Positions 5,459-33,178 of a stretch of DNA of 64,000 nt are shown one piece after another. Both the position numbers and the translations under genes were made by a program. The DNA is from Mayamaea pseudoterrestris (taxonomy: Eukaryota). The DNA lies in the NCBI GenBank assembly GCA_027923505.1, contig BROI01000011.1:744001-808000 (forward strand), in the 5' to 3' direction. The notes under the pieces are model-generated. The model ran no database searches, was not told where the DNA came from, and was given only the letters and a program-made list of their open reading frames with translations. Position 1 is the stretch's first letter; each line of letters starts with the position of its first letter.

Positions 5459-8400
5459 TTACAGTCCCCATGGGGACTGAGTTGGCGTCGCACATGCCTT
5501 GGATGCGGCGCTTTGCGTCATCGAGTGAGTTTCATCGCCTCCGTATACGGTCGAAGCCCAATCATTGTCAGTTGTAAATGAGCCCGACGTGCACATGCCA
5601 ACATCGCTACTATCATCGTCTGTCGCGGTCCCTGCATGCTTTTGGTGCTTCTGAAGTTTCTCAAGCTGCAAGCGAAAGCATAGCGCGGAGAAGCCTTCCA
5701 TGAGCATTCTGCATTGGTCAGAAGACGCAGCAGTGACGTCAAGTGTACGCTTGGAAAAGATAAGAGAAAAGCTCTTATTGGCAACGCCTTCTTTAGTGCA
5801 TTTTGCTCTCGTCGTCGCAGTCCCCGTCTTCTTGCGTGATTCAGGATCTGGCTCCCAGGCGTGCCTAACCTCTCGACATTTTATAAGATCCAGTTTTGGA
5901 CGCTTTCCCTTATTGATATCGGCTGATGGATCATCCTCGCATGGCTTCCATGTCAATGTCCTGCCATCCTCTTTTAGATAAATGACGCGCTTTGCCGACT
6001 TAGACCAGCGTGATTTGTTATGTTTAATTACAGTCAGTCCAGTACGCATGCGAGCGCAAAAAGGCCGCAGCACGTAGTCGGCCGCATTCAAACACCCTGC
6101 CGCTGGCTTAAATGCAGGAATTCGCTTGTCAGACCCCTTGACCTTGCCGTTGCGCTCTTCCAGCATAGCTCCCATGTCAATAATACTTCTATCGAGCGAG
6201 AGTCTTCGGCGAGGAGCCTGCTTGTACCGATCAAGCTCCTGGAAGACTTGAATGTCATTGTACATGCTGGCACCAAACGACAAATCCGAGTCTTCCGACT
6301 CATCATCTCCATCACTATCAAAATCAATATCAGCCCAGTTATAAGTGTTCCTGGCCGAAGCTGGTAGGATCTTATTACCATGATCGCTTATAACTGGCAA
6401 GCTTGGTGGTTGTTGGACTAGCTGCTTTTGCACCTCTACCAAATTATCTGCACTCAAAACAACATGCGGTGTGGTCAATGGGCGGGCTCGCGCTACTGCT
6501 GAAGACTTTAAACCAACCAGATGGGGCGGAGCAGCATTTGTTGTAGCCTCCTCGGGTTTGCGCGAAGATACATGCGGTAAGTGGGGTAATGGAACTATAT
6601 GCGACTCTTCTGTAGTGACGCTTTTGCCCTCGTCGGGCGTTACAGGAAGTGAATCGGTCGCGGATGTAATTTCGGCTGCCTTCGCCGCAGCAGCCGCTTC
6701 CCATTTCTTTTGCTCGGCTTCTTGCTGTTTCTTTTCCTTGGCCTTGTTTAAGACATCGAGCATACTCTCCTCATCACTCGAAGGATCATCTTCTTCATCA
6801 TTTGAAAAATTGTTGGCCTTGCCTCGTGCTAGATGCATTCCAAGCTTGCCCATCAGCTTTGGCTTCGTGTGCGTTTTCAAAACCGAATTAAGGTATCCGC
6901 TACGATTAAACAAGGAGTCTGGATCATTCATATCGTCGTCATCGTCATCCATGCCTTGTAGCAAATGCATTTCATCATCCGACGACATTCCTCGCTTGGA
7001 AGTGTCAGCGGTCGTGGCGCGATGACCCGAGGCAAACGACTGATCACCACCCGAGATGCTTCCATCAGGTCGCATCAAACATGAGTTTCGCCGCAAGCGT
7101 TTTGTGGAGCTCATTGACTGTTCCGAGTCACTGGCACCCTCTCGTTGCTCCTTATCGCTGTCGGCGTGTCCGTCAAAATCCTCGTCGCCCGATGTGGCGT
7201 TCCCTCCAGGTGATATTCCCGCAGCGATACCGTCTCCACTTCCATATCCATACATTTCAGTATTGTCCTGCTGATCCTCCGAGTCACTTGGCGTTGCATG
7301 GCCACCTTGTTCAGCGGTATCCGCATCCGGTTCCAAGTCACTCTCAGCCACGTGCAAGGCTCCCACTGATATTTCCTGCATTAACATGGGGTCTTGCTCC
7401 GGGCGGATCACGCACGAGTTGCGTCGACGAGATCGGCTGCTCGCCTGACTCCGATTGCTTCCTCGTCGCTCATATTTTGGAAGCTCCACGTTGCCCTGCC
7501 GCGGTGTTGGTCCGCCGTAGCCATAGCCCAATGAGTCGGCCGCACCATGATGACTGTGCGCGGACGCTTGGCTTCTATGACTTCCCCGCCGTTCGTAACC
7601 AGTTGCTGCGCCGCGCTTGGCAACTGTTGGGGCTGCGTATCCGTATCCCATGCCAGCGTCTTCGGCGTAGCCATAGTCAGGGTCGTCCTCATCATCATTG
7701 TCATCATCCTCGTCGTCGAGTCCCTGTGATGCAGCCTGCGCGGCGTTACCCGACATACGTCGACTCATACGAGCAACAACATCCGGATTGATACCAAACT
7801 TGAGTGTATGTGGTTCCGCCGGTGGAGGAGGCGCGGCCTCTACCGAGTTATTGTAACCATTGGACATGCGTCGTAGCTGTCGAGAAGAAGCGTTATTGCT
7901 GTAGCCGTTGGACATGCGACGGCTCTGCTTTCGTTGACTCGACGGCATGGTTCCTTGCTCCATAATCTCGTTGCCAGCTGCACTGTTGTCAGTATTGCTA
8001 AGGGACTGTCGTCGCGTACGGGATCGAACTGGCTGCTGGTCATGATATTGATAGTCGTCATTCGTGAGCAACATACCTCCACCAGTACTAGCTCGACGAC
8101 CCCGTCGCTGTGGAAGGGGCCGATGATACGGTTCGTCAAATGATCGCGACGTTATTGCAACATTTTGATGTGACTGCGATTGCCTGCGCTGAGAGCTACC
8201 TCCACTGTTGCTTCGACTAACACTTCCTCGTCGACGCACCGACGGTGGAGGAATCTGGTAAAAGGCGTCACCAGTAACAGCACGAGTGTCATGGTTACCA
8301 TAATAGTCATGCACCTGCGGAACAGCTCCCATGCTAGCGCGTCGATGTCGACGTTGACTAGCACATTCTTGTTGCTGCTGCATTGGTTGCACAAAGAGCA

Positions 8401-8650
8401 GCTCGCCAACGTGATGATTGACACTCACTTCGTGCTCGTAAGGCACTTCTCCTCCCAGGCTTGCTCGACGAGCCGTTTGTTTCAATTCATGGCGTTCCTG
8501 GGGCTGCGCGAAAAATTGGATAGTTGCGTCGACCCGCTTGGAGTGAGTGTTCATGTCACCTCCGCTTCCGTAACCGTACTCCATGTGCGCTTGCTGGAAT
8601 TCTTCGCTGCAGTCAATTAGATGGCTGCTGCTGTTGCTCTTCTTCACCAT
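5459..8650 (-). CDS. Large disordered protein with C-terminal PH-like domain
   Basis: 1063-aa ORF. Low-complexity N-terminus with many RRxS motifs. C-terminus (VIKHNKSRW..KRVIYL..TLTWKP..LDLIKCREVR..SFSLIFSKRTLDVTA..LMEGFSAL) matches the PLC/Num1-type PH pattern. Confidence 0.7.
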   Translation of the reverse strand: MVKKSNSSSHLIDCSEEFQQAHMEYGYGSGGDMNTHSKRVDATIQFFAQPQERHELKQTARRASLGGEVPYEHEVSVNHHVGELLFVQPMQQQQECASQRRHRRASMGAVPQVHDYYGNHDTRAVTGDAFYQIPPPSVRRRGSVSRSNSGGSSQRRQSQSHQNVAITSRSFDEPYHRPLPQRRGRRASTGGGMLLTNDDYQYHDQQPVRSRTRRQSLSNTDNSAAGNEIMEQGTMPSSQRKQSRRMSNGYSNNASSRQLRRMSNGYNNSVEAAPPPPAEPHTLKFGINPDVVARMSRRMSGNAAQAASQGLDDEDDDNDDEDDPDYGYAEDAGMGYGYAAPTVAKRGAATGYERRGSHRSQASAHSHHGAADSLGYGYGGPTPRQGNVELPKYERRGSNRSQASSRSRRRNSCVIRPEQDPMLMQEISVGALHVAESDLEPDADTAEQGGHATPSDSEDQQDNTEMYGYGSGDGIAAGISPGGNATSGDEDFDGHADSDKEQREGASDSEQSMSSTKRLRRNSCLMRPDGSISGGDQSFASGHRATTADTSKRGMSSDDEMHLLQGMDDDDDDMNDPDSLFNRSGYLNSVLKTHTKPKLMGKLGMHLARGKANNFSNDEEDDPSSDEESMLDVLNKAKEKKQQEAEQKKWEAAAAAKAAEITSATDSLPVTPDEGKSVTTEESHIVPLPHLPHVSSRKPEEATTNAAPPHLVGLKSSAVARARPLTTPHVVLSADNLVEVQKQLVQQPPSLPVISDHGNKILPASARNTYNWADIDFDSDGDDESEDSDLSFGASMYNDIQVFQELDRYKQAPRRRLSLDRSIIDMGAMLEERNGKVKGSDKRIPAFKPAAGCLNAADYVLRPFCARMRTGLTVIKHNKSRWSKSAKRVIYLKEDGRTLTWKPCEDDPSADINKGKRPKLDLIKCREVRHAWEPDPESRKKTGTATTRAKCTKEGVANKSFSLIFSKRTLDVTAASSDQCRMLMEGFSALCFRLQLEKLQKHQKHAGTATDDDSSDVGMCTSGSFTTDNDWASTVYGGDETHSMTQSAASKACATPTQSPWGL

Positions 8651-8924: not shown

Positions 8925-9167
8925 ATGGGTAACAGTCCATTAGCCGCCATGGGTGCCAAGCACCAAGCCAAGGGCATGCTACAGGACGCGACCGGAGGAT
9001 CAGAGGCGGACAAGAAGCGGGCAGCCGAGTTTGCAGCAAAGAAAAAGGACTTGGCCGCGACAAGAGCGGAACGAGACGAAGAATTCAAAAAGAAACAGGC
9101 AGAACGAGCTGAACGAAAGGGAAAGCTATCGGACAAGTGGGCGGCAAGCAAAAAGGCAAACAGCTAG
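8925..9167 (+). CDS. 80-aa charged helical protein, complexin(synaphin)-like central helix
   Basis: ATG-to-TAG ORF in an intergenic slot. MG start. Segment ERDEEFKKKQAERAERKGKLSDKW resembles the complexin SNARE-binding helix (see findings). Confidence 0.6.
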   Translation: MGNSPLAAMGAKHQAKGMLQDATGGSEADKKRAAEFAAKKKDLAATRAERDEEFKKKQAERAERKGKLSDKWAASKKANS

Positions 9168-9277
9168 TAAAATTGCATGATGCATGGCATGTAAGCGCCT
9201 GAACAATCTTCGATATGATACTTTGATCACAGCTTTAATTTGATAACACCCTTTACATAATAGAACACAAGAACTCG

Positions 9278-10661
9278 TTACATCTCTTTAATTTCAAAGG
9301 ATGCATCGAGCTCCTTTACAATTCGCTCCGTCAATCGACTCCCAAACGCAACCGCTGGAGTCATGACGCCGCCTTGGTTTGTTGTAGATTCCAACAAGAG
9401 TAAACCTGTCTCGACCAGCAAGGCAGCTGTGTAGAGATACCCAATGTCTTTGTTGAACTGAAATGTTGATTGAATTTTGATTTCTTCCTTTTCGCTCGAT
9501 AATTTGCGCATCACACCCAATCCATGTAGAATCAAGTACCCATTCTCCATTGTCTCTCTATCTGGACCTTCACCAGGAGAAGGTAAAAAGCGACCAAATA
9601 CCGAGGGAGCTGCAATTGCTGCAGCCAACAGCGCCGTCTTGCTCGTTTGGAGCAACCAACTAGAAAGTGATGATTGCTTGTATAGCTGCGCGTCACCATA
9701 CTGTAATGACTTGTTGTACTGCAACAAAGCGCTGACGTAATTGATACAATTGGATATGTTAGAACCTAGCTGTGACATGTAGAGAATCACACCTTCGTGC
9801 GACACGCGACAAAACACGTAACGTAAGTACAATGCACGATAACACTCACTTGCTGCGACGAACGCAATTTACCATGACGGGCCCCATGATCCACGGACCT
9901 GCCTTGCACTCCAATTCCGGTACTTCCACAGTCGCTTTGGGCGAAGCATTTGTCGTGACAAACTCGGAACTTGTCCCTTCGGTCGTTGTCAACAATGGAT
10001 CAAATGCAGGTTTGTTCGATTTGTCAGACCGATCCTTGTTCAACTGAAAAGTGGCCGTCGCAACCGTTCCACCCGAAAATGAGGCCGATGCGGGCATTTC
10101 GACAAAAGTCTTGACAGAGATTAGCTCGCAGTCCTTGGACCGAGCAAACTTGTTCATCTCATAAACTGTCAAATCTTGCGGAATACAGTCATTGCCGCAG
10201 TGATGAACAATCTTGGCACCGCTGGCTTGCGCGACCTTGTCAAAGTCGCGAATACACGCACGGACAAAGTCAGTTTCGCCCGTTACATCTGCATAGTGGA
10301 CACCGAGCTCGGCGCAGTATTTTACTAGCTTGGTGCCGTATCGCTCAAAAGGTCCAGCGCATGTCACGACGACGCGAGTCTGCGATACAACTTGCTTGAG
10401 AGCTTCTTCCTCGGATGGCGTTGCACAAAGCAAGTCTGCGACAAGAACGTCAGGTAGAGCAACTTGAACATCATCACTGTTGTCTACCATATTTTGAAGT
10501 ACCGCCTTGGCCTTCGCTTCGTTGCGTGCGCAGACGGCCCATTTAAAAGCCTTTGTTGTTTTGTCTTGCTGCTTTTGTAGCAAGTATTCGGCGGCCAGCT
10601 TGCCTGTGAAGCCAGTCACACCAAAGAGGATGATATCGTATTGTTTAAAGTTGCTCGACAT
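9278..10661 (-). CDS. Saccharopine dehydrogenase-like oxidoreductase (SCCPDH/trans-acting enoyl reductase family), 2 exons
   Basis: Exons 10661-9850 and 9731-9278, intron gtgag...cag. Motifs FGVTGFTG, CAGPF, HYADVTGE, CGNDCIPQD, SGGT, VRRSNALL (across the junction), PGEGP and GVMTPAVAFG. Confidence 0.9.
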
Positions 10662-15953: not shown

Positions 15954-18900
15954 ATGCGAGTCCTAAGCTGTGCCTTTACTTTGGCGGGCTTCCTGGCGGC
16001 GACTGATGCGGCGCACGTCGGGAGAGTGCGCGGCTTGGTCGACGATTCCGAACCCGTGAGGAAGCAACGACGTCTCATGGTAACGAGTGTAGGTGGAGGT
16101 CATTGGGGAAACAATGGACGCGTCACAAGTGGGAGCAGTGGTACGGTGTCGAACCCAGTTGTAGATGAAGGCGATACGGGAGGAAACAGCGGTGGCAGTG
16201 GAGGAGGAGGAGGCGGCGGCACAACTGTAACGAACCCTCAAGGAGGCGGTAGCGGAGCAACACCAGTTGTTAGTCCTGTCAGAGACGGAGGCAGTGGAGG
16301 CAACGCTCCTCGAGCCGACAATGGAGGCAGTGGAGGTGCGCCCCGCGCCCAACCCAAGGCGAGCAAGAGCAAGGGCGCAAGCAAGCAGGGAAGATCCATC
16401 AAGGGAAGTCAGGGTGGTTTCCGTGGAGGAGACGACGACCAAACTGGAACGACCGCCATTTGCACTTGCGCCAGCTGTACGACAGATGTCCTCAACACAA
16501 TGGCGGGAGGGTATACTTGCGGAGAACGCATTGATTTTCAGCTAAAGAACAATCCAGCATTGTTTCCAACCATTGCCACTGCGTGCCACCAAGTCGGAGG
16601 GTTGGAATTTCCAACTGGTAAGAGAACACGATGCTTGCACATACAAGTGCCATGTTGTAGCTTGAAATTGACTGACGATGTCTTCTTTTGACCTCCAGAG
16701 TGCGGAGCATGCGACCCCTTCACTTGTGATGGCCGCACGGAACCTGGCACAACAGACACCCACTGGTAGGTCGGAATCGCTAACATAATTGATCTTTAGA
16801 AAGCTGTGTGTCTCACTTTTGAATCGCTTTCTCACTTACAGTAACTGCGAGACATGCACTGCCGATGCTTGGAACATTGATGCCGGCGGTACGTAGCTTC
16901 TCTCTCGCTATGATTGAGGCGCGCTATATAGTTTGAAAATCACTCATCGGAAAACGTTGCTTTCTCATGCGCAGGCTACACATGCGGAGCTCGTATCTCA
17001 TGGGCCATGATTGTTGATCAAGCACAAGAGCAGGATGCGTGCAAGCTTGTCACCGCCAGTTATCCACAGTGTAAAGCGTGTAATCCACAAACTTGCGCTG
17101 TGCCGTTGACTGCAGCCCCAAGCATCGGTGGACGTTCGGAACCGACGTCGCCACCAGTCACCGCTCCACCTGTCACGCCCCCACCTGTTCTTCCTGTTGT
17201 TCCACGGCCTGTTCCTGTTGTTCCACAGCCTGTGGCTCCCGTGACCATGCCTCCCGTGACGGCAGCCCCAGTCACAGCTGCTCCCGTTACCGCGGCTCCC
17301 GTCACTTCCTCCCCCACGTCAGGCCGATCGGAACCGACCACTCCAGCTCCCGTGACGGCGGCGCCAGTGACTCCAGCGCCTGTGACGGCGGCACCCGTCG
17401 CCCCGCCTCCCGCCGCAACGGAGACGACTCCAGCTCCGACTGCAGCCGCTAAATGTCCCGAGTACTGCGACTGCTGGAGCTGCGCGGCCGCATGGAACAA
17501 TGTTGCGAACGGATTGACTTGCGGTCAGCGAATTAACTGGTTGATTGGAACGTAAGTAATGAGAATCGATGTGTTGAAGTTACCAAAAGCAATTCTCGCA
17601 TTTTACTTACCTCGCCAACTCTTGAAAACAATTTGCCAGTAACATTGGCGAAGCGGCAGCTTGCCGTGCCGTCGGCGGGACGGAATTCGTAGACGCGTGT
17701 GGGGCCTGCAATCCTGACACTTGCGACGGACGCACTTCGCCAGTCACCGCACCAGTCGCGGTCCCAGCGTCAACACCAGCCCCAACCGCCGGTCGGTCGG
17801 AACCAGAGACAACTCCTGTTCCAACGTACCCACCTGTCAGTGGTACTCCAGCGCCAACGGCTGGTCGATCAGAACCGGTATCGACTCCTGGTCCAACGTA
17901 CCCCCCGGTTAGTGGTACTCCGGCGCCAACGGCTGGTCGATCGGAGCCAGAATCAACTCCTGCCCCGACCTGCCAACCTGTCAATAGTACACCGGCGCCA
18001 ACTGCTGGGCGATCGGAACCTGTTTACACGCATGCACCGACCCATTTACCTGTAAGCAGTACACCAGCTCCAACTGCCGGCCGATCGGAACCAGTGATAC
18101 CAGCTCCAACACATCAGCCTGTTCAAGGCACGCCAGCGCCGACCGCTGGTCGATCCGAATCGTCTGAAATATATTGCTTCCCACCTTCGGATGAGCGCAA
18201 GCGATTCACTGGCGTCTGGGACAATTACATGTTGGAAGCGAAGGACAGCGCAGAAGATGTTTGCGGACCCGCCAACAATAATTTTGAGGATGTTCTTGTC
18301 TCGGTTAACGACGAGCGCAATGAGTTGAGCTTGACCTATCAATACGCAAACGGACTGTGGTATGGAAGTGAAGTACGCATTCTTCAAGAATCTGGGCCAT
18401 ACTCTTACGGAACGTTTACATACAGCGTCAAGTCGATCAACGTCATTGAAAATGGAACCGTCGTAAGCAATGTCCTGCCAGTCGGCCTCGTCGTCGGCAT
18501 GTTCACATGGGATTCAACGTACAGTGGAAGTGATCCCGAGATTTACGAAGTCGACATTGAGATTGGTCAGTTTGGAAATTCATCCAACGCAGATGCCCAA
18601 TTCCTTCTCCAACCGCCTGAACAGCCTCACTATTACCGATTCTGGACGGGGTCGGAAGGTGTCTGCGAGCAATCACCCCAGACATACGAGTTTACTTGGT
18701 TGCCCACATCGGTGGCTTGGTATTCCAGTGCTGGCGGAGGCCAGAATCATCTTTACACAACACAAGAAGCTATATCAACGAGTCAGACGGATCGTGTGCA
18801 GTGCATGCCATCATCTATTGAAGCTCGTGCCAGCTTGTGGAGCATTAGGGGCGCAGAAGTCGCACCTGATGGCATGAAGGAGAACCAGCAAGTTCAGGTT

Positions 18901-19023
18901 GTCTTTGACAAATTTACATTTACGCCTCTTGGTGTAACCGGAGTCGCAGATGGGGAAGCATGCTCGAAGAATTGCCAGTGTTTGAGTGGCTATTGTCAAA
19001 GTGGGGTCTGCGCAAGTCAGTGA
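15954..19023 (+). CDS. Secreted multidomain protein: Gly-rich region, three Cys-rich repeats, Pro/Thr linkers, GH16-like domain, C-terminal Cys module; 5 exons
   Basis: Exons 15954-16617, 16699-16765, 16842-16888, 16975-17551, 17640-19023, all GT-AG and frame-consistent. Signal peptide and RRL motif. EVDIE matches the GH16 catalytic E-x-D-x-E. Confidence 0.8.
17770..18165 (+). repeat. Coding tandem repeat, 6 x ~72 bp (TPAPTAGRSEP...)
   Basis: Six successive TPAPTAGRSE units about 24 aa apart in exon 5. Confidence 0.85.
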
Positions 19024-19193
19024 AACTAAAAGTATCAAGTGGCTATGATACTAAATGAACGTTTGTGTTACTGTAGGCATAATCGTAAAGAAATGTTTTT
19101 TTCGTTCTACTCTTAAGAAATTTGCTGAGAAAGCCAAAAGCGCGGGACGAAACTGTCAACTTTAGGTTGCAGGTGCAAGTATTTGGCCGAAGA

Positions 19194-20013
19194 TCACCCC
19201 TTTAACCAGCCCTTTCCTTTGGGTTTCATTGGTTGTATACCTTGAAGCTCGTTTCCTGCCAGTATCATCTGATCCGCTGCGAAAACCATTCGCTGACTAG
19301 AAAGTTCGGCATTTGCGTTTGCTGAATCAATCTTCTTGATAACAGTCGAAAGTAGCGTAAGATTCTTGCCGCCGACTGCAAGGTTTGCTCCCACAGTTGC
19401 TAATGGATCCTTTTGCATAATACATGCACCTGCCGCTTCGAGTGCGGTGCTTGTTGATTGCACGGGATCAATTGATAGTTCTGTATCAATGAGCCGAGCA
19501 ACAATGCAGCGTTAAGGTCAGATGTTACACAAAACATTCGTCAACCAAGGATACAGCAGACTGACAAACCTATAACATTTGCCAGCAAATCCATGTCATC
19601 TTCCTTTGCTTCTTGTACAGCAGCTTTAAGTTTCGAGCATGCTTCGTCGAGACATGTGGCGGCTTCTCGAAGTTCATCCGTAACAAGCTCGCTTCCAGTT
19701 TTGAATCGACAGGAGGCAGCTGCTTGCGCAATCGAGTCTCCTGCGTTTCGTATCTGAGCGCCTGCTGCTGATAGTCCACCTAAAAACGAATATTTAGAAA
19801 GCATGAGCTCGATTCAACTCGATAGTCATCTTTGTCATCCTTATTATCTTGCTTGCCTCCATACAAATTTAAATCCTGCGTGAGGTCAATCAAAAGTTCT
19901 CCGGCCCGGGCGAGCGCCTTGCCAGAATCCATCAATGGAACCGCTGCTGGCTTGAGTGAAAAACTACATATTCGGGTTATCAGTGGAAGCAACATTATCA
20001 AGCGTCGAAACAT
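19194..20013 (-). CDS. Hypothetical helical protein with signal-like leader, 3 exons (first intron GC-AG); copy 1
   Basis: Exons 20013-19857, 19779-19570, 19480-19194. Junctions give LNLYG-G-GLSAAGAQ and NVI-E-LSIDPVQST. Confidence 0.7.
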
Positions 20014-20241
20014 TCTTCCGTACTATATGGTGTTGACGATGAGCGGATGCTGGGGTTTTCCATAGTGGAACGCTGTGCGGGTGATGATCAATGCGACTGT
20101 CAGATCATTCGCAGCGGTTCTCATCCAGAACCGATGCGTCATCACAAGTCGCGCTTGAAGTTGGCACCATGGCCCAACGCGGATTTTCCATCCGCACAAA
20201 ATTGAAAAAAGTAGCACCCGATTCATGCAAACCTTAGAATT

Positions 20242-21141
20242 ATGCTTCACTTAAGAACCTTCACGCCAATGCTACTCCTGCTGGGATGCGAAGCTTTTTC
20301 TTTACAGCGACATTTTTCTCGCAGACAATCACCATTGGCATTTCCGAGCAGCAGGCTCCTCTCCTCGGCAGCTGCAATCCCCGAAGGCCTAACAAAGTCG
20401 GTCCAAACGCCAGGAAATGGACCGCCAGTATCATTTGGTGATATTTGTACGTTATCATATTCATGCTACGTTGTCGACAATAAGGATGACAGCAAGCTTT
20501 TCGCCAAGGCACGCTCCCAAAAATTCATGATTGGCGACGGAAGCATGATTGAAGCATGGGAAAAGATTGTTCCAACCATGCGGGTCGGTGAACGATCGAT
20601 TGTTCGTGTCAACGATCCATCATTGGGGTACGGAAGTGCAGGGGTTCCGCCAGTAGTTCCACCAAACGCAATCTTGGAGCTAGATATAGAGTTGATTACC
20701 GCACAAGCTGCCACGGCAAACATTGACTTTGATTCCATCGCCATGGCAGAAAAGGTGCCTAAAACTGCGGCAGACATTGAGGCTGCTTTCGCACTGAAAA
20801 TGGCAGGCAAGAGCGATGAACCAAAGCTAGAAGGATTTGAACTATTTCTCAAAAAGGCCAAGAACTTTTACTTTTTCGGTTTGTTTGAAGGTGAAACAGG
20901 CGAACGTCCACCATGGATTCTCCGGCCCAGTATCACCTTTCCGTTAGCGTTTGCCATTGTTGGTGCTGCCTTTTATATATCCTATGCGGGAGGAGCTATT
21001 AGCGAGCGTGGTGCGCAAGTCAAGGACGAGCTGGATGAAATTATTTTGAGTATGACTGGCATTGACGCTCGTGTTCCGACTTCACTGTTGGCAGCGACTG
21101 CTAATGTTGCAGCAAGCGTGATGGATGTAAGCATTTTATAG
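20242..21141 (+). CDS. FKBP-type peptidyl-prolyl isomerase, probably plastid-targeted, with C-terminal TM; copy 1
   Basis: Leader ends CEAF-SL. FKBP motifs FMIGDGSMIEAWE, MRVGER, LGYGSAGVPPVVPPNAILELDIEL. TM FPLAFAIVGAAFYISY. Confidence 0.9.
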   Translation: MLHLRTFTPMLLLLGCEAFSLQRHFSRRQSPLAFPSSRLLSSAAAIPEGLTKSVQTPGNGPPVSFGDICTLSYSCYVVDNKDDSKLFAKARSQKFMIGDGSMIEAWEKIVPTMRVGERSIVRVNDPSLGYGSAGVPPVVPPNAILELDIELITAQAATANIDFDSIAMAEKVPKTAADIEAAFALKMAGKSDEPKLEGFELFLKKAKNFYFFGLFEGETGERPPWILRPSITFPLAFAIVGAAFYISYAGGAISERGAQVKDELDEIILSMTGIDARVPTSLLAATANVAASVMDVSIL

Positions 21142-21275
21142 TTACGCTGTACTTGTTGCAATAATCTACGACTCCTTTATACTCGTAAAAAGTAAGGCGC
21201 TATGTTGCAGAGCGATAATTATTTCCTTTAATCTTTTCTCATCGTCAAACCGTATGGTTACACGTAAAATTTGAC

Positions 21276-22816
21276 CTACAAGTCATCTCCATCGGCAGTA
21301 AGAAAATGATTCTTGACATTTTGGCGTTTCTTGCGGTTGGCTTTAAGATCCAAGTCAGCAGCCTTGGCAGTATCGCTCGTCTTGGATAGCATTAAGCGCT
21401 TTTCGAGTTGCGACAAGGACCCACTTTCCATGAGTAGCTGACCGTTTGCCCCGAAAATCAGATGCAGCGTTTCATTAGTTAAAATTTGGATTTGAAAGCC
21501 GCCCTGGAGGCAGTGGCGAACAAAATTGAGCTGTATAATTTCCTTCCAATTATTCATCGATAGACGACCGCCTCGAAAAGCCACCACTTCTTCAGGCGCT
21601 TCGTCCTCCACAATCGTTTGCATAAAGTCCCTAAAAGTTGAACGTTGTTCTTTCTTAGCCTTACGGCTCAGATGATGGCCAGATTCAACCGATAGCTCGG
21701 CAATTCGCTGCTTGACCTCGTCCATGATGACTTCCCACTGCGACCCATCCCATGATCCGCGTCGAAACCGTCTTACAATGTAATGAAAGTTGTAAGTTAG
21801 CAAGTGTGCGCATATACAACGCGATAAAATGCAAGCAACCAATGCACTCACCTTGCTGTCGTATTTTCGCATTCCTCGGATCCGGCGCCAAGGTTTAGCC
21901 TCGCTTCGTGTATCAGCGAAAAGCATTCCCCTGCAGCTGACCTCAGATCAATCGAAGTATCATCCAAACAGTCACGAAGCAAATCCAATATCGCCAAACC
22001 GCGTCCCATTTGCGCATCATCTTGGCCAGCAAGGTGGTAGTCCAAGACAGTAGTAGCCAGTAGCGCCCAGCAATCCAGAGCCGTCGCTCTTAAAGTTGCT
22101 TGTACTTTTTCGTTCCGATATTCCTTGGCAGCGACAAGCTCGCAAAGATCCATCAGACCTTCCGTCGTGGCGGAATCCGACGAGCAAATAAAATCCGACA
22201 TGGTGAGTGCCCGTAGCGCAGCAATACGCACTGGGACGGCACGCTGCGTCGCCATGACAACGCTTCGTAGCTGGCGGTCTAATTTCTCGCACCACTCATC
22301 ATTGTTCGTACCCAAAACTACCGAGGCAACCTCCAAGGTTCGGCAGGCAGCGTACTGTTCCTGCGGACTGCCAACTCGAATACCATGAAACGCAGCGTCT
22401 TTAATACTTTCCGACCATTGGTACACAAGCTCGGCAGCCGCCGGGCCAGTTGCATACTGCGAAAGCGCCTTGAATAGTCGCTTCAAGGTCGCCTCACGCT
22501 TGACAGTGCGCTTCTCCGAAGCAAACTCCTCGCACAATGATAGCGTCTCCTTTAACTTGACGTAGCGTGCTTCTGCGGCAGCCATGGCATGATCCGCGTG
22601 ATCTCTTCCGCCGCCTTCGAGCAAAAAGTCGTCTTCTGGCGTATGGTCCGTCTGTGCAGAACCCCAGTCGCTTCCGAAATTCGTCTCAACGCCAATGGTA
22701 AAGTCGTCGTCCAGAAACTGCTGATTCTGCTGATCGAAATCACCGTCATCGCCATCGTCATCCTCCATGGACTGGCCCTTCTTGCGGCGCTGTGATCTAG
22801 GCGCTTTACGAGCCAT
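21276..22816 (-). CDS. Interferon-related developmental regulator (IFRD)-like protein, 2 exons; copy 1
   Basis: Exons 22816-21852 and 21771-21276. IFRD motifs EKRTVKRE..L, LRSAAGEC..LIHE, KKEQRSTFRD, LQGGF, KANRKKRQ. Confidence 0.85.
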
Positions 22817-23182
22817 GCTTTGCGAGTACTTGCAGTTTGAAGCAAGGATGTGGAATGAAGATCTTGATGGAGATGTCTGCTTGTGCTGATGCCGCAGCGA
22901 ATGCTTGTGGAGGAGCGAGTGCCGGATGAAAGCTGAACGACATCATGACGTTTCTCTAATTGTCGCAATTCACCGGAATGCGAAGAAATCGCAAGCCTAT
23001 CATTGTGGCGTCGTATAACTGCGGCAAAGTATAGTCAAAGTTATTCCGTATAATCTAAAGTATAGCAGTTAAAGATATGTATTCCAGTTGCGATCATGGA
23101 GGCAAACATTTGCCCCAGGCTTTCACGCGACCACAACTATCGACTGCGTGCATGGAGCAAGGCAGTGTGTTTCAAAACGAAC

Positions 23183-23923
23183 TCATATAGTACGTTTCTT
23201 TGCAGTTCGAACAATAATATTCTCCTCTTGCGCCCATTCGAGTCCGCATTCGCCAGTGAGATACTCGCGCTTCTTGTTCAGATTGTGTTGTTGCAGCGGA
23301 GGAGGAACCCATTCATGAGCATCCGACCACGCACGCAAGAGACTATACGGATCTTGTATACCGTCTAGGGCCGGCTGCCCACTGACAATAGGTACCACTT
23401 GAATTTCGCTCTCTGATGATGCTTGTTTCTGCAGGTGACTAACTGCCAATGACGATGAGTCGACCCGAGCAAGGACGACGCAGCCTTCCCGATGCTCAGA
23501 CCCTCGCCGAGAGTTCGGGTTGCCGGTTCCACCAATGACTTGATAATTTATTATGCAATATGCTTGAAGGTCTGCTAATGCATGAGCCTGTGTAGAAGCG
23601 TTTGAAAATGATTGGCCAGTAGGCAGTTGCTTGATCACCAAAGCATTCACGCGTCGCACCCAAAAGAGCTTTCCACGCGTCGAAAATGCATACTCGACTT
23701 CTTCCCCATTGCTCTTTAGAGGTATGGTTCGCACTGGCTCCTGACGAGCATAGGCATGGGCCGACTGACTGGCAACGTTATCAGCTAACGCTCGATTGGC
23801 GAAGAGCAAAGGCAAGTCCTTTGATGCTTCAAATCGTGGACCATCAAACCAACTCTTTCCAACAATGAAAAGTGATACTGTTCTCGTTGTGGCTGCAGCA
23901 GAGTGGGCAGTGGGTAAGTTCAT
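23183..23923 (-). CDS. Hypothetical protein; true 5' end uncertain, an upstream exon near 24030-24100 is possible; copy 1
   Basis: 246-aa ORF with globular composition filling an intergenic slot. No family recognised. Confidence 0.5.
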   Translation of the reverse strand: MNLPTAHSAAATTRTVSLFIVGKSWFDGPRFEASKDLPLLFANRALADNVASQSAHAYARQEPVRTIPLKSNGEEVEYAFSTRGKLFWVRRVNALVIKQLPTGQSFSNASTQAHALADLQAYCIINYQVIGGTGNPNSRRGSEHREGCVVLARVDSSSLAVSHLQKQASSESEIQVVPIVSGQPALDGIQDPYSLLRAWSDAHEWVPPPLQQHNLNKKREYLTGECGLEWAQEENIIVRTAKKRTI

Positions 23924-24887
23924 GGCGCATGAATGAGTGGACGTACTCGTCGGGTCTCGTTAGCGCAAAAGGGACGACGAATGCGGCGAAAACATGGATC
24001 GTCACACATAATATCGTACCGGTACTCGTAGTCGCACCTTCATTCACATTATTTACTTCGCATCGCCTCCCGCAGCGCGTGTTCTTCGTCGTTTCCAGAT
24101 CCATATCCTTCCTGTTAAGAAAATCACTACTCAATCGTATTAAGCTGCTCAACATCATGTCAATTTGCGATAGAAAGCAACATTTAAGAGTAATACTGGA
24201 ACGTGTAAGGTATAAGCCTTATAAAGTCTGAAGTGTTTCTAAGTTGGTGATGTGCGTGCCCACGGAGCGCGCAAAAGCCCACAACCTAATTGCCCATCTA
24301 CCTTGTTTTTCTTTTAAAGCAACATGCATAGTATGGCGTTTTATTTATTCGCGAGAAATGTTACAATGACCTAAATATGACCAGCTTTCTGTAATGACCC
24401 CATGGACTAACTGGTGTCAACAACTTATCTAAGATGATATAATTGAAGCTCGTAAGGTAGGCGTGTGCCTTTCGCGGTGTTGATAATGAAGCGTTGGGCA
24501 AGTTTACCATAGTGATATGCACTTGGACAAAAAAATCATCTTGTGCAAGATGAGGCCATGGACAACCGCTGCTGTATTCTTTTCAGACTTTTCACTGCGG
24601 TTGTTCAATTGCGCATGACAGGCGTTGCTCACAGAGTACTAAGTACACACAGTCAGATAGGCCCGGCAGGCGTGATGAACAGAAGGGAAAAGAACGCACG
24701 ACTTCCAATTTTTCAAAATTATTGCCCCAGGACTAGTTTTCGTCCAGTGAGTGCCTCCAGGAGCAGGAACGGACAAACGCATTCCTATGTAGGAGTGTCA
24801 ATCGCCACCAACGAGTCATTATGCGCAACCTGATGACCCTCTCCATCCCGTCGCTCATTCATCTTGTCGAACACACGCACCACGACC

Positions 24888-27800
24888 ATGAAGTCGAGCT
24901 ACATGCTCATCACCACGCTCATCTGCGTGGCCAATGCCTCAATAGATCCTTATTGGAGTTCATACACCCATCACAAAAGAGTTTTGCTTTTGGACCAGAA
25001 GATGGCGACGGCTGGAGCACGAGATCCCCCATCTAAGATGCGTAGTCGAGTCCAACTTTCAACGACATGCCCACGGCTATTGACGACTATGTTTCCACAG
25101 AGTGGCTTCTTGGAAAATGACGATGACAGTGTTTTAGAGCAACAAATCGCCACCCATGATGGGCAGACTGACAGAGATCCATCGGGTGGCAGTCGATGGG
25201 TGTCCGTGTGCTATGATACGACAACCAGTACGACACTTTTGAACGAGCCGCGGCGGAGTCAGTGTCACAGCAATCTGCTCTTCCGCTCATGTAGGCGCGG
25301 CGTCTGTCGGTTTCGACCAGCCTATCTTGTGAATAACTCACACCGCGACATCCAAAGTCTTGTAACATACGCAGCAAACAAAAAAGGTGATGATGAAATA
25401 CCTAATTATCGACACGTAAACCAAAAAGACAAGGGAACTGAAAATTTGAGCTCAGTTGAGGAAGGTGTGAGGAAGAGGGTGGACCTAAGAAGTTCAAAAG
25501 CTGGATATTGCTTCACTGTAAAAACATCAACAACCTCAATGTTATCTCTATATCCTGCAATTGAACCGCACACAAAAACACGTACTGTCAAGCGAAGATT
25601 ACAAGCGACAGAACCAAGTGCATTGCCAAGCAACCAGCCTTCCCTAGCACCGAGACCAAGCTCTATGCCAAGCAAGGTTCCAAGCGCTCAACCAGTGGAT
25701 GCTCCCAGTGCCTTGCCGAGCAAGGTTCCAAGCGCTCAACCAGTGATTGCTCCCAGTGCCTTGCCGAGCAAGGTTCCAAGCGCTCAACCAGTGGAAGCTC
25801 CCAGTGCCTTGCCGAGCAAGGTGCCAAGCACCCAACCTGCTGTGAATGCTCCCAGTGCCTTGCCGAGCAAGGTTCCAAGCGCTCAACCAGTGGATGCTCC
25901 CAGTGCCTTGCCGAGCAAGGTTCCAAGCGCTCAACCAGTGGATGCTCCCAGTGCCTTGCCGAGCAAGGTTCCAAGCGCTCAACCAGTGGATGCTCCCAGT
26001 GCCTTGCCGAGCAAGGTACCAAGCGCTCAACCAGTGGAAGCTCCCAGTGCCTTGCCGAGCAAGGTTCCAAGCGCTCAACCAGTGGATGCTCCCAGTGCCT
26101 TGCCGAGCAAGGTTCCAAGCGCTCAACCAGTGGATGCTCCCAGTGCCTTGCCGAGCAAGGTTCCAAGCGCTCAACCAGTGGATGCTCCCAGTGCCTTGCC
26201 GAGCAAGGTTCCAAGCGCTCAACCAGTGGATGCTCCCAGTGCCTTGCCGAGCAAGGTTCCAAGCGCTCAACCAGTGGATGCTCCCAGTGCCTTGCCAAGC
26301 AAGGTTCCAAGCGCTCAACCAGTGGATGCTCCCAGTGCCTTGCCGAGCAAGGTTCCAAGCGCTCAACCAGTGGATGCTCCCAGCGCCTTGCCGAGCAAGG
26401 TTCCAAGCGCTCAACCAGTGGATGCTCCCAGTGCCTTGCCGAGCAAGGTTCCAAGCGCTCAACCAGTGGATGCTCCCAGTGCCTTGCCGAGCAAGGTTCC
26501 AAGCGCTCAACCAGTGGATGCTCCCAGTGCCTTGCCGAGCAAGGTTCCAAGCGCTCAACCAGTGGATGCTCCCAGTGCCTTGCCGAGCAAGGTTCCAAGC
26601 GCTCAACCAGTGGATGCTCCCAGTGCCTTGCCGAGCAAGGTTCCAAGCGCTCAACCAGTGGATGCTCCCAGTGCCTTGCCGAGCAAGGTTCCAAGCGCTC
26701 AACCAGTGGATGCTCCCAGTGCCTTGCCGAGCAAGGTTCCAAGCGCTCAACCAGTGGATGCTCCCAGTGCCTTGCCGAGCAAGGTTCCAAGCGCTCAACC
26801 AGTGGATGCTCCCAGTGCCTTGCCGAGCAAGGTTCCAAGCGCTCAACCAGTGGATGCTCCCAGTGCCTTGCCGAGCAAGGTTCCAAGTGCTCAACCAGTG
26901 GATGCTCCCAGTGCCTTGCCGAGCAAGGTTCCAAGCGCTCAACCAGTGAATGCTCCCAGTGCCTTGCCGAGCAAGGTTCCAAGCGCTCAACCAGTGGATG
27001 CTCCCAGTGCCTTGCCGAGCAAGGTTCCAAGCGCTCAACCAGTGGATGCTCCCAGTGCCTTGCCGAGCAAGGTTCCAAGCGCTCAACCAGCTGTGAATGC
27101 TCCCAGTGCCTTGCCGAGCAAGGTTCCAAGCGCTCAACCAGCTGTGAATGCTCCCAGTGCCTTGCCGAGCAAGGTTCCAAGCGCTCAACCAGTGAATGCT
27201 CCCAGTGCCTTGCCGAGCAAGGTTCCAAGCGCTCAACCAGCTGTGAATGCTCCCAGTGCCTTGCCGAGCAAGGTTCCAAGCGCTCAACCAGTGAATGCTC
27301 CCAGTGCCTTGCCGAGCAAGGTGCCAAGCGCTCAACCAGTGAATGCTCCCAGTGCCTTGCCGAGCAAGGTGCCAAGCGCTCAACCAGTGAATGCTCCCAG
27401 TGCCTTGCCGAGCAAGGTGCCAAGCGCTCAACCAGTGGATGCTCCCAGTGCCTTGCCGAGCAAGGTTCCAAGCGCTCAACCAGTGAATGCTCCCAGTGCC
27501 TTGCCGAGCAAGGTGCCAAGCGCTCAACCAGTGAATGCTCCCAGTGCCTTGCCGAGCAAGGTGCCAAGTGCCCAACCAGCTGTGAATGCTCCCAGTGCCT
27601 TGCCGAGCAAGGTTCCAAGCGCTCAACCAGTGGATGCTCCCAGTGCCTTGCCGAGCAAGGTTCCAAGCGCTCAACCAGTGAATGCTCCCAGTGCCTTGCC
27701 GAGCAAGGTGCCAAGCGCCCAACCAGCTGTGAATGCTCCCAGTGCCTTGCCGAGCAAGGTGCCAAGCGCTCAACCAGCTGTGAATGCTCCCAGTGCCTTG

Positions 27801-28277
27801 CCGAGCAAGGTTCCAAGCGCTCAACCAGTGGATGCTCCCAGTGCCTTGCCGAGCAAGGTGCCAAGCGCCCAACCAGCTGTGAATGCTCCCAGTGCCTTGC
27901 CGAGCAAGGTGCCAAGCGCCCAACCAGCTGTGAATGCTCCCAGTGCCTTGCCGAGCAAGGTGCCAAGCGCTCAACCAGCTGTGAATGCTCCCAGTGCCTT
28001 GCCGAGCAAGGTTCCAAGCGCTCAACCAGCTGTGAATGCTCCCAGTGCCTTGCCGAGCAAGGTGCCAAGCGCTCAACCAGCTGTGAATGCTCCCAGTGCC
28101 TTGCCGAGCAAGGTGCCAAGCGCTCAACCAGTGAATGCTCCCAGTGCCTTGCCGAGCAAGGTGCCAAGCGCTCAACCAGCTGTGAATGCTCCCAGTGCCT
28201 TGCCGAGCAAGGTGCCAAGCGCTCAACCAGGAAGCGAAGGACAGCGCAGAAGATGTTTGCGGACCCGCCAACAATAA
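24888..28277 (+). pseudogene. 5' portion of the giant Pro/Ser-repeat protein, cut off at the duplication junction
   Basis: Same sequence as 34884 onward. The frame runs into GH16-gene sequence at 28231 out of frame and stops at 28277, so the KxxK region and TM are missing. Confidence 0.75.
25668..28230 (+). repeat. Coding minisatellite of 48/51-bp units (APSALPSKVPSAQPVD / ...QPAVN), ~52 units
   Basis: Unit gctcccagtgccttgccgagcaaggttccaagcgctcaaccagtggat repeated. Unit count estimated from array length. Confidence 0.97.
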
Positions 28278-29019
28278 TTTTGAGGATGTTCTTGTCTCGG
28301 TTAACGACGAGCGCAATGAGTTGAGCTTGACCTATCAATACGCAAACGGACTGTGGTATGGAAGTGAAGTACGCATTCTTCAAGAATCTGGGCCATACTC
28401 TTACGGAACGTTTACATACAGCGTCAAGTCGATCAACGTCATTGAAAATGGAACCGTCGTAAGCAATGTCCTGCCAGTCGGCCTCGTCGTCGGCATGTTC
28501 ACATGGGATTCAACGTACAGTGGAAGTGATCCCGAGATTTACGAAGTCGACATTGAGATTGGTCAGTTTGGAAATTCATCCAACGCAGATGCCCAATTCC
28601 TTCTCCAACCGCCTGAACAGCCTCACTATTACCGATTCTGGACGGGGTCGGAAGGTGTCTGCGAGCAATCACCCCAGACATACGAGTTTACTTGGTTGCC
28701 CACATCGGTGGCTTGGTATTCCAGTGCTGGCGGAGGCCAGAATCATCTTTACACAACACAAGAAGCTATATCAACGAGTCAGACGGATCGTGTGCAGTGC
28801 ATGCCATCATCTATTGAAGCTCGTGCCAGCTTGTGGAGCATTAGGGGCGCAGAAGTCGCACCTGATGGCATGAAGGAGAACCAGCAAGTTCAGGTTGTCT
28901 TTGACAAATTTACATTTACGCCTCTTGGTGTAACCGGAGTCGCAGATGGGGAAGCATGCTCGAAGAATTGCCAGTGTTTGAGTGGCTATTGTCAAAGTGG
29001 GGTCTGCGCAAGTCAGTGA
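28231..29019 (+). pseudogene. 5'-truncated duplicate of the GH16-like domain
   Basis: Same as 18235-19023. Lacks promoter, signal peptide and exons 1-4. Confidence 0.8.
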
Positions 29020-29189
29020 AACTAAAAGTATCAAGTGGCTATGATACTAAATGAACGTTTGTGTTACTGTAGGCATAATCGTAAAGAAATGTTTTTTTCG
29101 TTCTACTCTTAAGAAATTTGCTGAGAAAGCCAAAAGCGCGGGACGAAACTGTCAACTTTAGGTTGCAGGTGCAAGTATTTGGCCGAAGA

Positions 29190-30009
29190 TCACCCCTTTA
29201 ACCAGCCCTTTCCTTTGGGTTTCATTGGTTGTATACCTTGAAGCTCGTTTCCTGCCAGTATCATCTGATCCGCTGCGAAAACCATTCGCTGACTAGAAAG
29301 TTCGGCATTTGCGTTTGCTGAATCAATCTTCTTGATAACAGTCGAAAGTAGCGTAAGATTCTTGCCGCCGACTGCAAGGTTTGCTCCCACAGTTGCTAAT
29401 GGATCCTTTTGCATAATACATGCACCTGCCGCTTCGAGTGCGGTGCTTGTTGATTGCACGGGATCAATTGATAGTTCTGTATCAATGAGCCGAGCAACAA
29501 TGCAGCGTTAAGGTCAGATGTTACACAAAACATTCGTCAACCAAGGATACAGCAGACTGACAAACCTATAACATTTGCCAGCAAATCCATGTCATCTTCC
29601 TTTGCTTCTTGTACAGCAGCTTTAAGTTTCGAGCATGCTTCGTCGAGACATGTGGCGGCTTCTCGAAGTTCATCCGTAACAAGCTCGCTTCCAGTTTTGA
29701 ATCGACAGGAGGCAGCTGCTTGCGCAATCGAGTCTCCTGCGTTTCGTATCTGAGCGCCTGCTGCTGATAGTCCACCTAAAAACGAATATTTAGAAAGCAT
29801 GAGCTCGATTCAACTCGATAGTCATCTTTGTCATCCTTATTATCTTGCTTGCCTCCATACAAATTTAAATCCTGCGTGAGGTCAATCAAAAGTTCTCCGG
29901 CCCGGGCGAGCGCCTTGCCAGAATCCATCAATGGAACCGCTGCTGGCTTGAGTGAAAAACTACATATTCGGGTTATCAGTGGAAGCAACATTATCAAGCG
30001 TCGAAACAT
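29190..30009 (-). CDS. Hypothetical 3-exon protein, copy 2
   Basis: Same as 19194-20013 shifted by +9996. Confidence 0.7.
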
Positions 30010-30237
30010 TCTTCCGTACTATATGGTGTTGACGATGAGCGGATGCTGGGGTTTTCCATAGTGGAACGCTGTGCGGGTGATGATCAATGCGACTGTCAGA
30101 TCATTCGCAGCGGTTCTCATCCAGAACCGATGCGTCATCACAAGTCGCGCTTGAAGTTGGCACCATGGCCCAACGCGGATTTTCCATCCGCACAAAATTG
30201 AAAAAAGTAGCACCCGATTCATGCAAACCTTAGAATT

Positions 30238-31137
30238 ATGCTTCACTTAAGAACCTTCACGCCAATGCTACTCCTGCTGGGATGCGAAGCTTTTTCTTTA
30301 CAGCGACATTTTTCTCGCAGACAATCACCATTGGCATTTCCGAGCAGCAGGCTCCTCTCCTCGGCAGCTGCAATCCCCGAAGGCCTAACAAAGTCGGTCC
30401 AAACGCCAGGAAATGGACCGCCAGTATCATTTGGTGATATTTGTACGTTATCATATTCATGCTACGTTGTCGACAATAAGGATGACAGCAAGCTTTTCGC
30501 CAAGGCACGCTCCCAAAAATTCATGATTGGCGACGGAAGCATGATTGAAGCATGGGAAAAGATTGTTCCAACCATGCGGGTCGGTGAACGATCGATTGTT
30601 CGTGTCAACGATCCATCATTGGGGTACGGAAGTGCAGGGGTTCCGCCAGTAGTTCCACCAAACGCAATCTTGGAGCTAGATATAGAGTTGATTACCGCAC
30701 AAGCTGCCACGGCAAACATTGACTTTGATTCCATCGCCATGGCAGAAAAGGTGCCTAAAACTGCGGCAGACATTGAGGCTGCTTTCGCACTGAAAATGGC
30801 AGGCAAGAGCGATGAACCAAAGCTAGAAGGATTTGAACTATTTCTCAAAAAGGCCAAGAACTTTTACTTTTTCGGTTTGTTTGAAGGTGAAACAGGCGAA
30901 CGTCCACCATGGATTCTCCGGCCCAGTATCACCTTTCCGTTAGCGTTTGCCATTGTTGGTGCTGCCTTTTATATATCCTATGCGGGAGGAGCTATTAGCG
31001 AGCGTGGTGCGCAAGTCAAGGACGAGCTGGATGAAATTATTTTGAGTATGACTGGCATTGACGCTCGTGTTCCGACTTCACTGTTGGCAGCGACTGCTAA
31101 TGTTGCAGCAAGCGTGATGGATGTAAGCATTTTATAG
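30238..31137 (+). CDS. FKBP-type PPIase, copy 2
   Basis: Translation identical to 20242-21141. Confidence 0.9.
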   Translation: MLHLRTFTPMLLLLGCEAFSLQRHFSRRQSPLAFPSSRLLSSAAAIPEGLTKSVQTPGNGPPVSFGDICTLSYSCYVVDNKDDSKLFAKARSQKFMIGDGSMIEAWEKIVPTMRVGERSIVRVNDPSLGYGSAGVPPVVPPNAILELDIELITAQAATANIDFDSIAMAEKVPKTAADIEAAFALKMAGKSDEPKLEGFELFLKKAKNFYFFGLFEGETGERPPWILRPSITFPLAFAIVGAAFYISYAGGAISERGAQVKDELDEIILSMTGIDARVPTSLLAATANVAASVMDVSIL

Positions 31138-31271
31138 TTACGCTGTACTTGTTGCAATAATCTACGACTCCTTTATACTCGTAAAAAGTAAGGCGCTATG
31201 TTGCAGAGCGATAATTATTTCCTTTAATCTTTTCTCATCGTCAAACCGTATGGTTACACGTAAAATTTGAC

Positions 31272-32812: not shown

Positions 32813-33178
32813 GCTTTGCGAGTACTTGCAGTTTGAAGCAAGGATGTGGAATGAAGATCTTGATGGAGATGTCTGCTTGTGCTGATGCCGCAGCGAATGC
32901 TTGTGGAGGAGCGAGTGCCGGATGAAAGCTGAACGACATCATGACGTTTCTCTAATTGTCGCAATTCACCGGAATGCGAAGAAATCGCAAGCCTATCATT
33001 GTGGCGTCGTATAACTGCGGCAAAGTATAGTCAAAGTTATTCCGTATAATCTAAAGTATAGCAGTTAAAGATATGTATTCCAGTTGCGATCATGGAGGCA
33101 AACATTTGCCCCAGGCTTTCACGCGACCACAACTATCGACTGCGTGCATGGAGCAAGGCAGTGTGTTTCAAAACGAAC

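Follow-up and report, generated by a model that had tools for sequence, protein, structure and literature searches.

A family of small helical diatom proteins with a remote likeness to complexin

Introduction

Few regulators of fusion are held to date from the animal stem, and complexin is described as one; exocytosis in choanoflagellates is described as experimentally intractable (PMC13454271, 2026). Accounts of complexin's range name animals together with the unicellular holozoans (PMC13454271, PMC9750855, PMC8377282). Its central helix (residues 48–70) is reported to lie antiparallel in the groove between syntaxin and synaptobrevin (PMC4611016), and R48 and R59 are described as contacting VAMP2 and syntaxin and as being needed for SNARE binding (PMC13454271). 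The C-terminal domain is said to end in a hydrophobic motif or a CaaX box (PMC5445133), and certain complexins are described as lacking its amphipathic part (PMC13454271). One account proposes that a stimulatory, synaptotagmin-independent role is primordial and suggests that N-terminal membrane binding can substitute for a missing C-terminal domain (PMC13454271).

In the open literature, we found no published complexin from diatoms or other stramenopiles, although sequences of this kind could already be present in some supplementary phylogeny. PMC7934909 names complexin solely in a reference. Here we describe P0001, a protein of 80 amino acids from the diatom Mayamaea pseudoterrestris. On our best reading it works like a complexin, and we think it reasonably probable that it is a remote, tail-less complexin homologue that acts on the plasma-membrane SNAREs. 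We stop short of assigning it to that family because it falls below the Pfam cut-off and has no C-terminal domain.

Results and discussion

A single-exon gene

We analyzed a window of 64,000 nucleotides from contig C11 of the 30.6-Mb genome. P0001 is the product of a gene with one exon on the forward strand (8925–9167), as supported by translation, relatives and profile searches. An 80-residue ORF had been claimed in the preliminary description, and translation of this interval gives just that, with a Met-Gly start, Gly-Gly at residues 24–25, a charged segment at 46–72 and no CaaX box. Reading on from the preceding in-frame stop, this ATG is the earliest (the open frame is 92 amino acids, with this Met at position 13). 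The gene lies head to head with an ORF of 1063 amino acids (5459–8650, minus strand) and tail to tail with a saccharopine-dehydrogenase-like gene (9278–10661, minus strand), and these neighbors give no clue to its function.

P0001 is a gene and not a chance ORF, since it has relatives at 78–83% identity, belongs to a profile family of 80 proteins, and some of those members come from transcriptome sets. Across four public runs, all from one study (X1–X4), the differences listed include 4 inside the ORF and all 4 are synonymous third positions; those listed are 63 less 23 over a 3-kb stretch, and by contig counts at most two more could fall in the ORF. Single bases are missing from two A-runs, at 9042 and 9150, in one contig of X2 (depth 7.7); neither loss is seen in X1 (the same sample), X3 or X4. 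Within this one study, the contigs from X3 and X4 end at 9251 and 9249 while those from X1 and X2 continue. An 835-bp contig from an independent run joins the ORF to the diatom neighbor gene.

Searches of the genome with the family members P0102 and P0145 found no second copy. The second genomic match (L002; E = 1.8e-4) was ruled out as a family member, as it is an unrelated DUF6823 protein.

A conserved family across diatoms

With P0001 as a single query, we found three relatives (78–83% identity). A profile of 4 sequences then found 9 relatives, a profile of 10 sequences found 80 proteins (clustered at 90%), and a profile of 81 sequences, run against 1.84 billion proteins, found 99 representatives (clustered at 50%). 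None of these 99 matches is a true complexin. Among 30 proteins that we looked up, the named members are from Nitzschia (three records), Pseudo-nitzschia australis, Fragilariopsis kerguelensis, Entomoneis, Odontella aurita and Dactyliosolen fragilissimus, which covers both pennate and centric diatoms, and many derive from transcriptome sets. Most family members carry no organism label, so the named range is a lower bound on the true one. The sole named non-diatom member is a record labelled Tiarina fusa, a ciliate; because it groups with pennate sequences, we read it as prey or contamination.

Eight columns are strongly conserved among 95 of the 99 representatives (four truncated or frameshifted rows were left out): R50 (76%), F/Y54 (90%), K57 (83%), R61 (91%), R64 (75%), K65 (80%), L/I68 (88%) and W72 (86%). 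These columns form one face of a helix. Whether or not the homology to complexin holds, this is an unannotated, unnamed, strongly conserved and diatom-wide family.

Vesicles near the raphe are thought to discharge polymers, according to one account (PMC11420354), and a role in releasing mucilage had been suggested for P0001. We do not favor a mucilage- or raphe-specific role: the family is also present in centric diatoms, which argues for a general secretory role instead.

One subgroup (P0112, P0150, P0151, P0155, P0157 and P0172) lacks the Met-Gly start, has the N-terminus nearest to that of animal complexins, and gives the best scores against Pfam's complexin family, Synaphin (E down to 1.3e-4). 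These sequences carry no organism label.

Protein layout and membrane anchoring

The AlphaFold2 model of P0001 has two helices, residues 5–24 and 27–79 (mean pLDDT 79.6, pTM 0.40). A Foldseek search with this two-helix model returned 0 matches and is uninformative. Ahead of the first helix is a Met-Gly-Asn-Ser start (8925–8936, forward strand, as are all parts of the gene), which is a possible N-myristoylation site judging by counts across the family and the known motif; P0001 itself lacks Ser at position 6. The N-terminal helix (residues 5–24; 8937–8996) bears an Ala-Lys anchor and appears to align to the N-terminal domain of complexin, as indicated by the model (pLDDT about 60 here), hhalign, block shuffles and the column pattern. 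A Gly-Gly hinge (residues 24–25; 8994–8999), evident in the sequence and as a helix break in the model, separates the two helices. In the alignments and the model, a charged helix (residues 27–49; 9003–9071) stands at the place of complexin's accessory helix, and its length varies within the family. It leads into the conserved helix (residues 50–72; 9072–9140), which by conservation (75–91% among the 95 representatives) and by register is at the place of the SNARE-binding central helix and carries R50, F54, K57, R61, R64, K65, L68 and W72. The translation ends with a basic tail of 8 residues and the stop codon (9141–9167), with neither a C-terminal domain nor a CaaX box.

An amphipathic N-terminus had been noticed in the preliminary description. 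In P0001 alone this property is weak (moment 0.20–0.22, equalled by 549–809 of 2000 shuffles), but the pattern is clear across the family. Similarly, myristoylation through the Met-Gly start is plausible for many members but is not obligatory: the start is found in 59 of the 95 representatives, while two of the four closest relatives have Trp2. Gly2 with Ser or Thr at position 6 is the usual pattern for N-myristoylation, and 46 of these 59 have S/T at position 6.

Other ends are seen elsewhere in the family. C-terminal Cys clusters are present in 12 of the 95 representatives (P0138, P0140, P0145, P0149, P0152, P0156, P0158, P0159, P0162, P0163, P0164 and P0168), and may tie these members to the membrane in another way, by S-acylation or prenylation. 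Nine of the 95 have a short aromatic motif at the C-terminus. We found no member of the Cys-cluster subgroup in the M. pseudoterrestris genome in a search with P0145.

Comparison with complexins and other helical families

Like complexin-1 (PDB 5W5C chain E), P0001 is small and helical, and it has an N-terminal helix, a Gly-Gly linker, a charged helix and an Arg/aromatic helix in that order. An ungapped register against complexin had been proposed, and we reproduced it against complexin-1 from the PDB: R48, Y52, R59, R63, I66 and Y70 correspond to R50, F54, R61, K65, L68 and W72 without gaps. This pairs R50 and R61 with the two arginines, R48 and R59, that are described as SNARE contacts. In contrast, P0001 has K57 and R64 where complexin-1 has M55 and M62, Trp instead of Tyr70, and an additional N-terminal MGN segment. 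In this register the family's most conserved columns include those opposite complexin's SNARE-binding positions R48, R59 and Y70, namely R50, R61 and W72, with Q/K71 also in register, but the block does not rise above composition nulls and the M55 and M62 positions differ.

The family's Trp falls on position 74 of the Synaphin profile in all 21 matches with coordinates (of 23 matches), assuming no gap up to the end of the alignment, and in three of three true complexin controls that position is the central-helix Tyr. Because family members are related by ancestry, these 21 matches do not count as independent evidence for the register.

Whereas complexins continue into a C-terminal domain with a hydrophobic motif or CaaX box, P0001 stops 8 residues past the central helix. 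The two groups also differ in range, with this family in stramenopiles and complexin in animals and unicellular holozoans. The prenylated invertebrate complexins (18 CaaX-type sequences from the set L029–L055) share with the diatom proteins the Ala-Lys anchor, the N-terminal hydrophobic pattern and the theme of lipid anchoring; however, their anchor is C-terminal, while in most diatom members it is probably N-terminal. Position +2 is hydrophobic in these complexins and Gln/Lys in the diatom family, and His at position 52 is a further difference.

Some family members also have sub-threshold Pfam matches to RNase_Y_N, rRNA_processing and V-ATPase_G. Unlike the matches to complexin, these fall within single subclades, reach at most 2 of 89 divergent representatives, and showed no reciprocal or structural support.

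Complexin is the top match in several libraries

We compared P0001 to 24,736 Pfam families, and the best was Synaphin (PF05835; E = 2.6e-4, 21.7 bits). The gathering score is 27 bits: no family member reaches it (0 of 170; the best has 22.7 bits), while true complexin controls score 100–108 bits. When the Synaphin model was run against the 30.6-Mb genome, there was one candidate and one match, the P0001 ORF (E = 0.0024), as compared to 0 of 14 control genomes. Against 177,635 PDB sequences, complexin-1 was the only match for profile A2 (E = 0.93) and the first of three for profile A5 (E = 0.14, complexin residues 5–76), which is built from 55 members picked by length and start and not by score. 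Complexin was not found in the PDB with P0001 as a single sequence or with the untrimmed profile A3. In the ESM Atlas, the first match for P0001 is a "complexin-like" cluster (0.77), which we treat as a lead; a typical member (P0048) had no match there, and the structure rows are generic helices.

At E ≤ 0.05, Synaphin was matched by 16 of the 89 divergent representatives (the next family by 2 of 89). Within the 81-member set it was matched by 7, as against 10 for rRNA_processing. None of 44 natural helical decoys matched Synaphin at this threshold; the decoys are less charged than the family (90 were picked, with a median composition score of –0.03 versus 0.34 for the family, and 45 were scanned). 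A further locus, L040, was left out of the decoy count because it had been retrieved by a complexin motif. For one decoy, 5 of 10 families were seen among the matches listed. A SNARE decoy matched an unrelated helical family at E = 3.8e-5, so the E value of 2.6e-4 for P0001 and Synaphin can be spurious.

Matching is reciprocal, from P0001 to Pfam, from the Pfam model to the genome and from A5 to the PDB, but all of it lies below conventional significance, and A3 missed complexin. Indeed, no score in the Pfam, genome or PDB searches reached a curated or database-level threshold. The proposed likeness to complexin thus survives in part: complexin is the top or only match in Pfam, the genome, the PDB and the ESM Atlas, which makes it the best reading, but every score is sub-threshold. 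In a tree made by a quick method (108 rows by 88 columns), the complexins sit on a branch of length 2.7 and cannot be placed because long branches meet.

L040 (204–779) is a metagenome ORF of about 185 amino acids that is atypical for a complexin, with a hydrophobic N-terminus, a segment that resembles the central helix, and a Synaphin match at E = 0.0065. Since a motif retrieved it, it is possibly a chance match or possibly a captured fragment.

The order-specific signal is in the N-terminal segment

We compared the family to complexins using shuffled profiles as nulls. The complexins were drawn from 27 metagenome loci retrieved by a short motif, of which 18 are invertebrate complexins and 16 were confirmed as a set; they are bilaterian and picked by one motif, and hence a narrow set. 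Two family HMMs gave these 18 sequences means of 11.8 and 12.4 bits, which were reached by 0 of 400 whole-length column shuffles and by 1–21 of 400 local shuffles. The N-terminal block alone beat 400 of 400 shuffles (the reversed block scored about –1). The DUF6823 protein L002, which is plastid-type, scored 6.9 bits on a family HMM, overlapping the lowest complexins.

The central helix had been put forward as the evidence for the likeness, and by itself it does not bear that weight. Its alignment does not exceed composition-matched nulls (its score is equalled in 273–486 of 600 permutations and surpassed by that of the reversed profile), and in the HMM test the central helix alone was reached by 109 and 149 of 400 shuffles. 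Conversely, a complexin HMM gave the family a mean of 5.9 bits versus 4.3–4.7 for local shuffles, and the score of P0001 was reached by 60–69 of 1000.

The N-terminal block common to the family and complexins consists of the Ala-Lys anchor with hydrophobic residues at –3, –1, +3, +7 and +10, and a mismatch at +2. Using hhalign, we obtained 26 aligned columns in this segment with a probability of 39%. The spacing from the Lys to the aromatic residue is 55–70 residues versus 61–70 in the two groups, and the order of N-terminal domain, accessory helix and central helix is retained (collinear over complexin residues 5–76; helices 5–24 and 27–79 in the model). In these sequence comparisons, the order-specific complexin signal lies in the N-terminal segment together with the collinear layout and not in the central helix.

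Candidate SNARE partners and a predicted complex

The genome contains one syntaxin of plasma-membrane type (L005/L017), seven R-SNARE matches, a Qb that is NPSN-like, and two divergent Qbc-like proteins. The subtype names are presumptive and were given by eye. In Phaeodactylum, a syntaxin of the L005/L017 type is reported to mark new plasma membrane (PMC4710849).

We predicted a complex of P0001 with L005 (108–186), L028 (28–282) and L010 (92–160) and obtained a score of 0.59 (0.59, 0.60 and 0.58), with no interface in the output. The runs agreed in at least 73% of contacts, and the partners had pLDDT of at least 69. Unrelated partners scored 0.00 and 0.00, and replacing the Qbc chain gave 0.13. 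Of solved complexes, 51/78 reach the pass mark, as do 2/108 mismatches; those that pass at 0.60 or below are only 5 of the 78 solved complexes but all 4 passing mismatches, and our job is unlike those of the calibration. This prediction weakly suggests that P0001 binds a bundle of its own Qa, Qbc-like and R-SNAREs. A protein that binds the assembled complex would be expected to show such a drop in score once the bundle is broken. The pass itself may reflect a likeness to, or a memory of, the solved complexin-SNARE structure.

By eye, L010 (1480–2043) is an R-SNARE whose zero layer holds Asn in place of Arg. Acidic residues stand 9 and 12 residues past this layer, where VAMP2 has D65 and D68, but there is none at +1; R-SNAREs often carry acids of this kind. 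L026 (1468–3090) and L028 (829–1734) are divergent SNAP-25-like (Qbc) candidates, with a second motif that has non-Gln zero layers, and L026 has a long additional C-terminal region. Their assignment as Qbc SNAREs is from weak V-SNARE_C matches and reading by eye, and PDB searches gave no confirmation. The models for the SNAP-25 linker (PF00835) and MUN (PF06292) had no match in the genome, and the controls were equally silent, so this result is no sign of absence. Two other proteins, L014 (1435–3150) and L015 (1–1632), combine ankyrin repeats (and in one of them FYVE) with a C-terminal R-SNARE motif and have no membrane anchor. They are candidates for soluble SNARE decoys like tomosyn or amisyn, with an unusual architecture.

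How P0001 might act

If P0001 works like a complexin, its N-terminal helix, which may be myristoylated on Gly2 in many members, would hold the protein at the membrane instead of the absent C-terminal domain. After the hinge, the distal half of the long helix would clip onto the exocytic bundle as it zippers, in the Qa/R groove. Specifically, helix 50–72 would run antiparallel to the assembled four-helix bundle where its plasma-membrane syntaxin and vesicle R-SNARE form a groove, with contacts through R50, F54, R61, K65, L68 and W72. We propose that groove binding would stabilize zippering and accelerate stimulus-evoked exocytosis instead of clamping it. Clamping seems less likely because inhibition by the worm complexin is reported to rely on the C-terminal domain (PMC5445133), which is missing here. 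Possible cargo includes extracellular polymers, silica-wall or cleavage membrane, and transporters.

Other explanations for the likeness

The family might instead be an unrelated, diatom-specific group of lipid-anchored helical adaptors, with the R/K/aromatic face binding another partner (cytoskeleton, a pump or lipid headgroups) and complexin being just the best of many weak matches to Lys/Glu/Arg-rich helices. We consider this unlikely. It would account for a central-helix block that does not exceed the nulls, for complexin scores that are all sub-threshold, for the matches to further charged-helix families, for the overlap of the DUF6823 protein with the lowest complexins, and, given the common ancestry of the members, for 21 registers that are not independent. 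But it leaves complexin coming first in four different libraries as a coincidence, along with two separate blocks that match in the same order at similar spacing and a docking score that falls so far once the bundle is broken. A quite improbable alternative is that the proteins do act like complexin but originated independently in diatoms, where selection by the acidic syntaxin/R-SNARE groove would have led to the same spacing of Arg, aromatic residue and Arg. The conserved positions suit the groove yet differ at the M55 and M62 equivalents and at Tyr/Trp, named members are absent between diatoms and holozoans, and the membrane anchor differs, all as convergence would have it. However, it is the N-terminal block that shows the greatest order-specific similarity, and this block is not the SNARE-binding part and would not be expected to converge in both sequence and spacing.

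There is also a very slight chance that the gene is non-functional in M. pseudoterrestris, or that it is contamination from an animal. None of the four public runs is on record as RNA, and one contig has the two 1-base losses. Against this, the family is large and conserved and includes transcriptome-derived diatom members, the four listed differences in the ORF are synonymous, the independent contig links the ORF to a diatom gene, and P0001 is far from animal complexins.

What a diatom complexin would mean

Returning to our preferred reading of P0001 as a remote complexin homologue, we tentatively propose, at somewhat less than even confidence, that a minimal complexin with an N-terminal membrane helix and a SNARE-binding helix was already present in the ancestor that stramenopiles share with opisthokonts. 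It would survive as an overlooked, N-myristoylated diatom family that controls stimulus-evoked secretion without synaptotagmin or a C-terminal domain. A true complexin likeness would imply that complexin originated much deeper, or was transferred long ago, or arose by convergence. If confirmed, complexin-type control would extend beyond animals and the unicellular lineages nearest to them. P0001 would then be a natural minimal complexin without a C-terminal domain, in organisms with knockout tools, and diatoms would have a first candidate for regulating timed secretion (wall exocytosis, cleavage membrane and adhesive polymers).

Other features of the window

The sequence at 18234–28230 of the window is repeated at 28230–38226 with 100.000% identity over 9,997 bases, and the repeat ends within a tandem array; this is probably an assembly duplication. 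At 24888–28277 and 34884–42369 is an ORF with a signal-peptide-like start and a coding tandem array with a 48/51-base unit (53 and 133 copies), whose repeats are rich in Pro, Ser, Ala and Gln. Its product is a putative mucin- or adhesive-like secreted protein.
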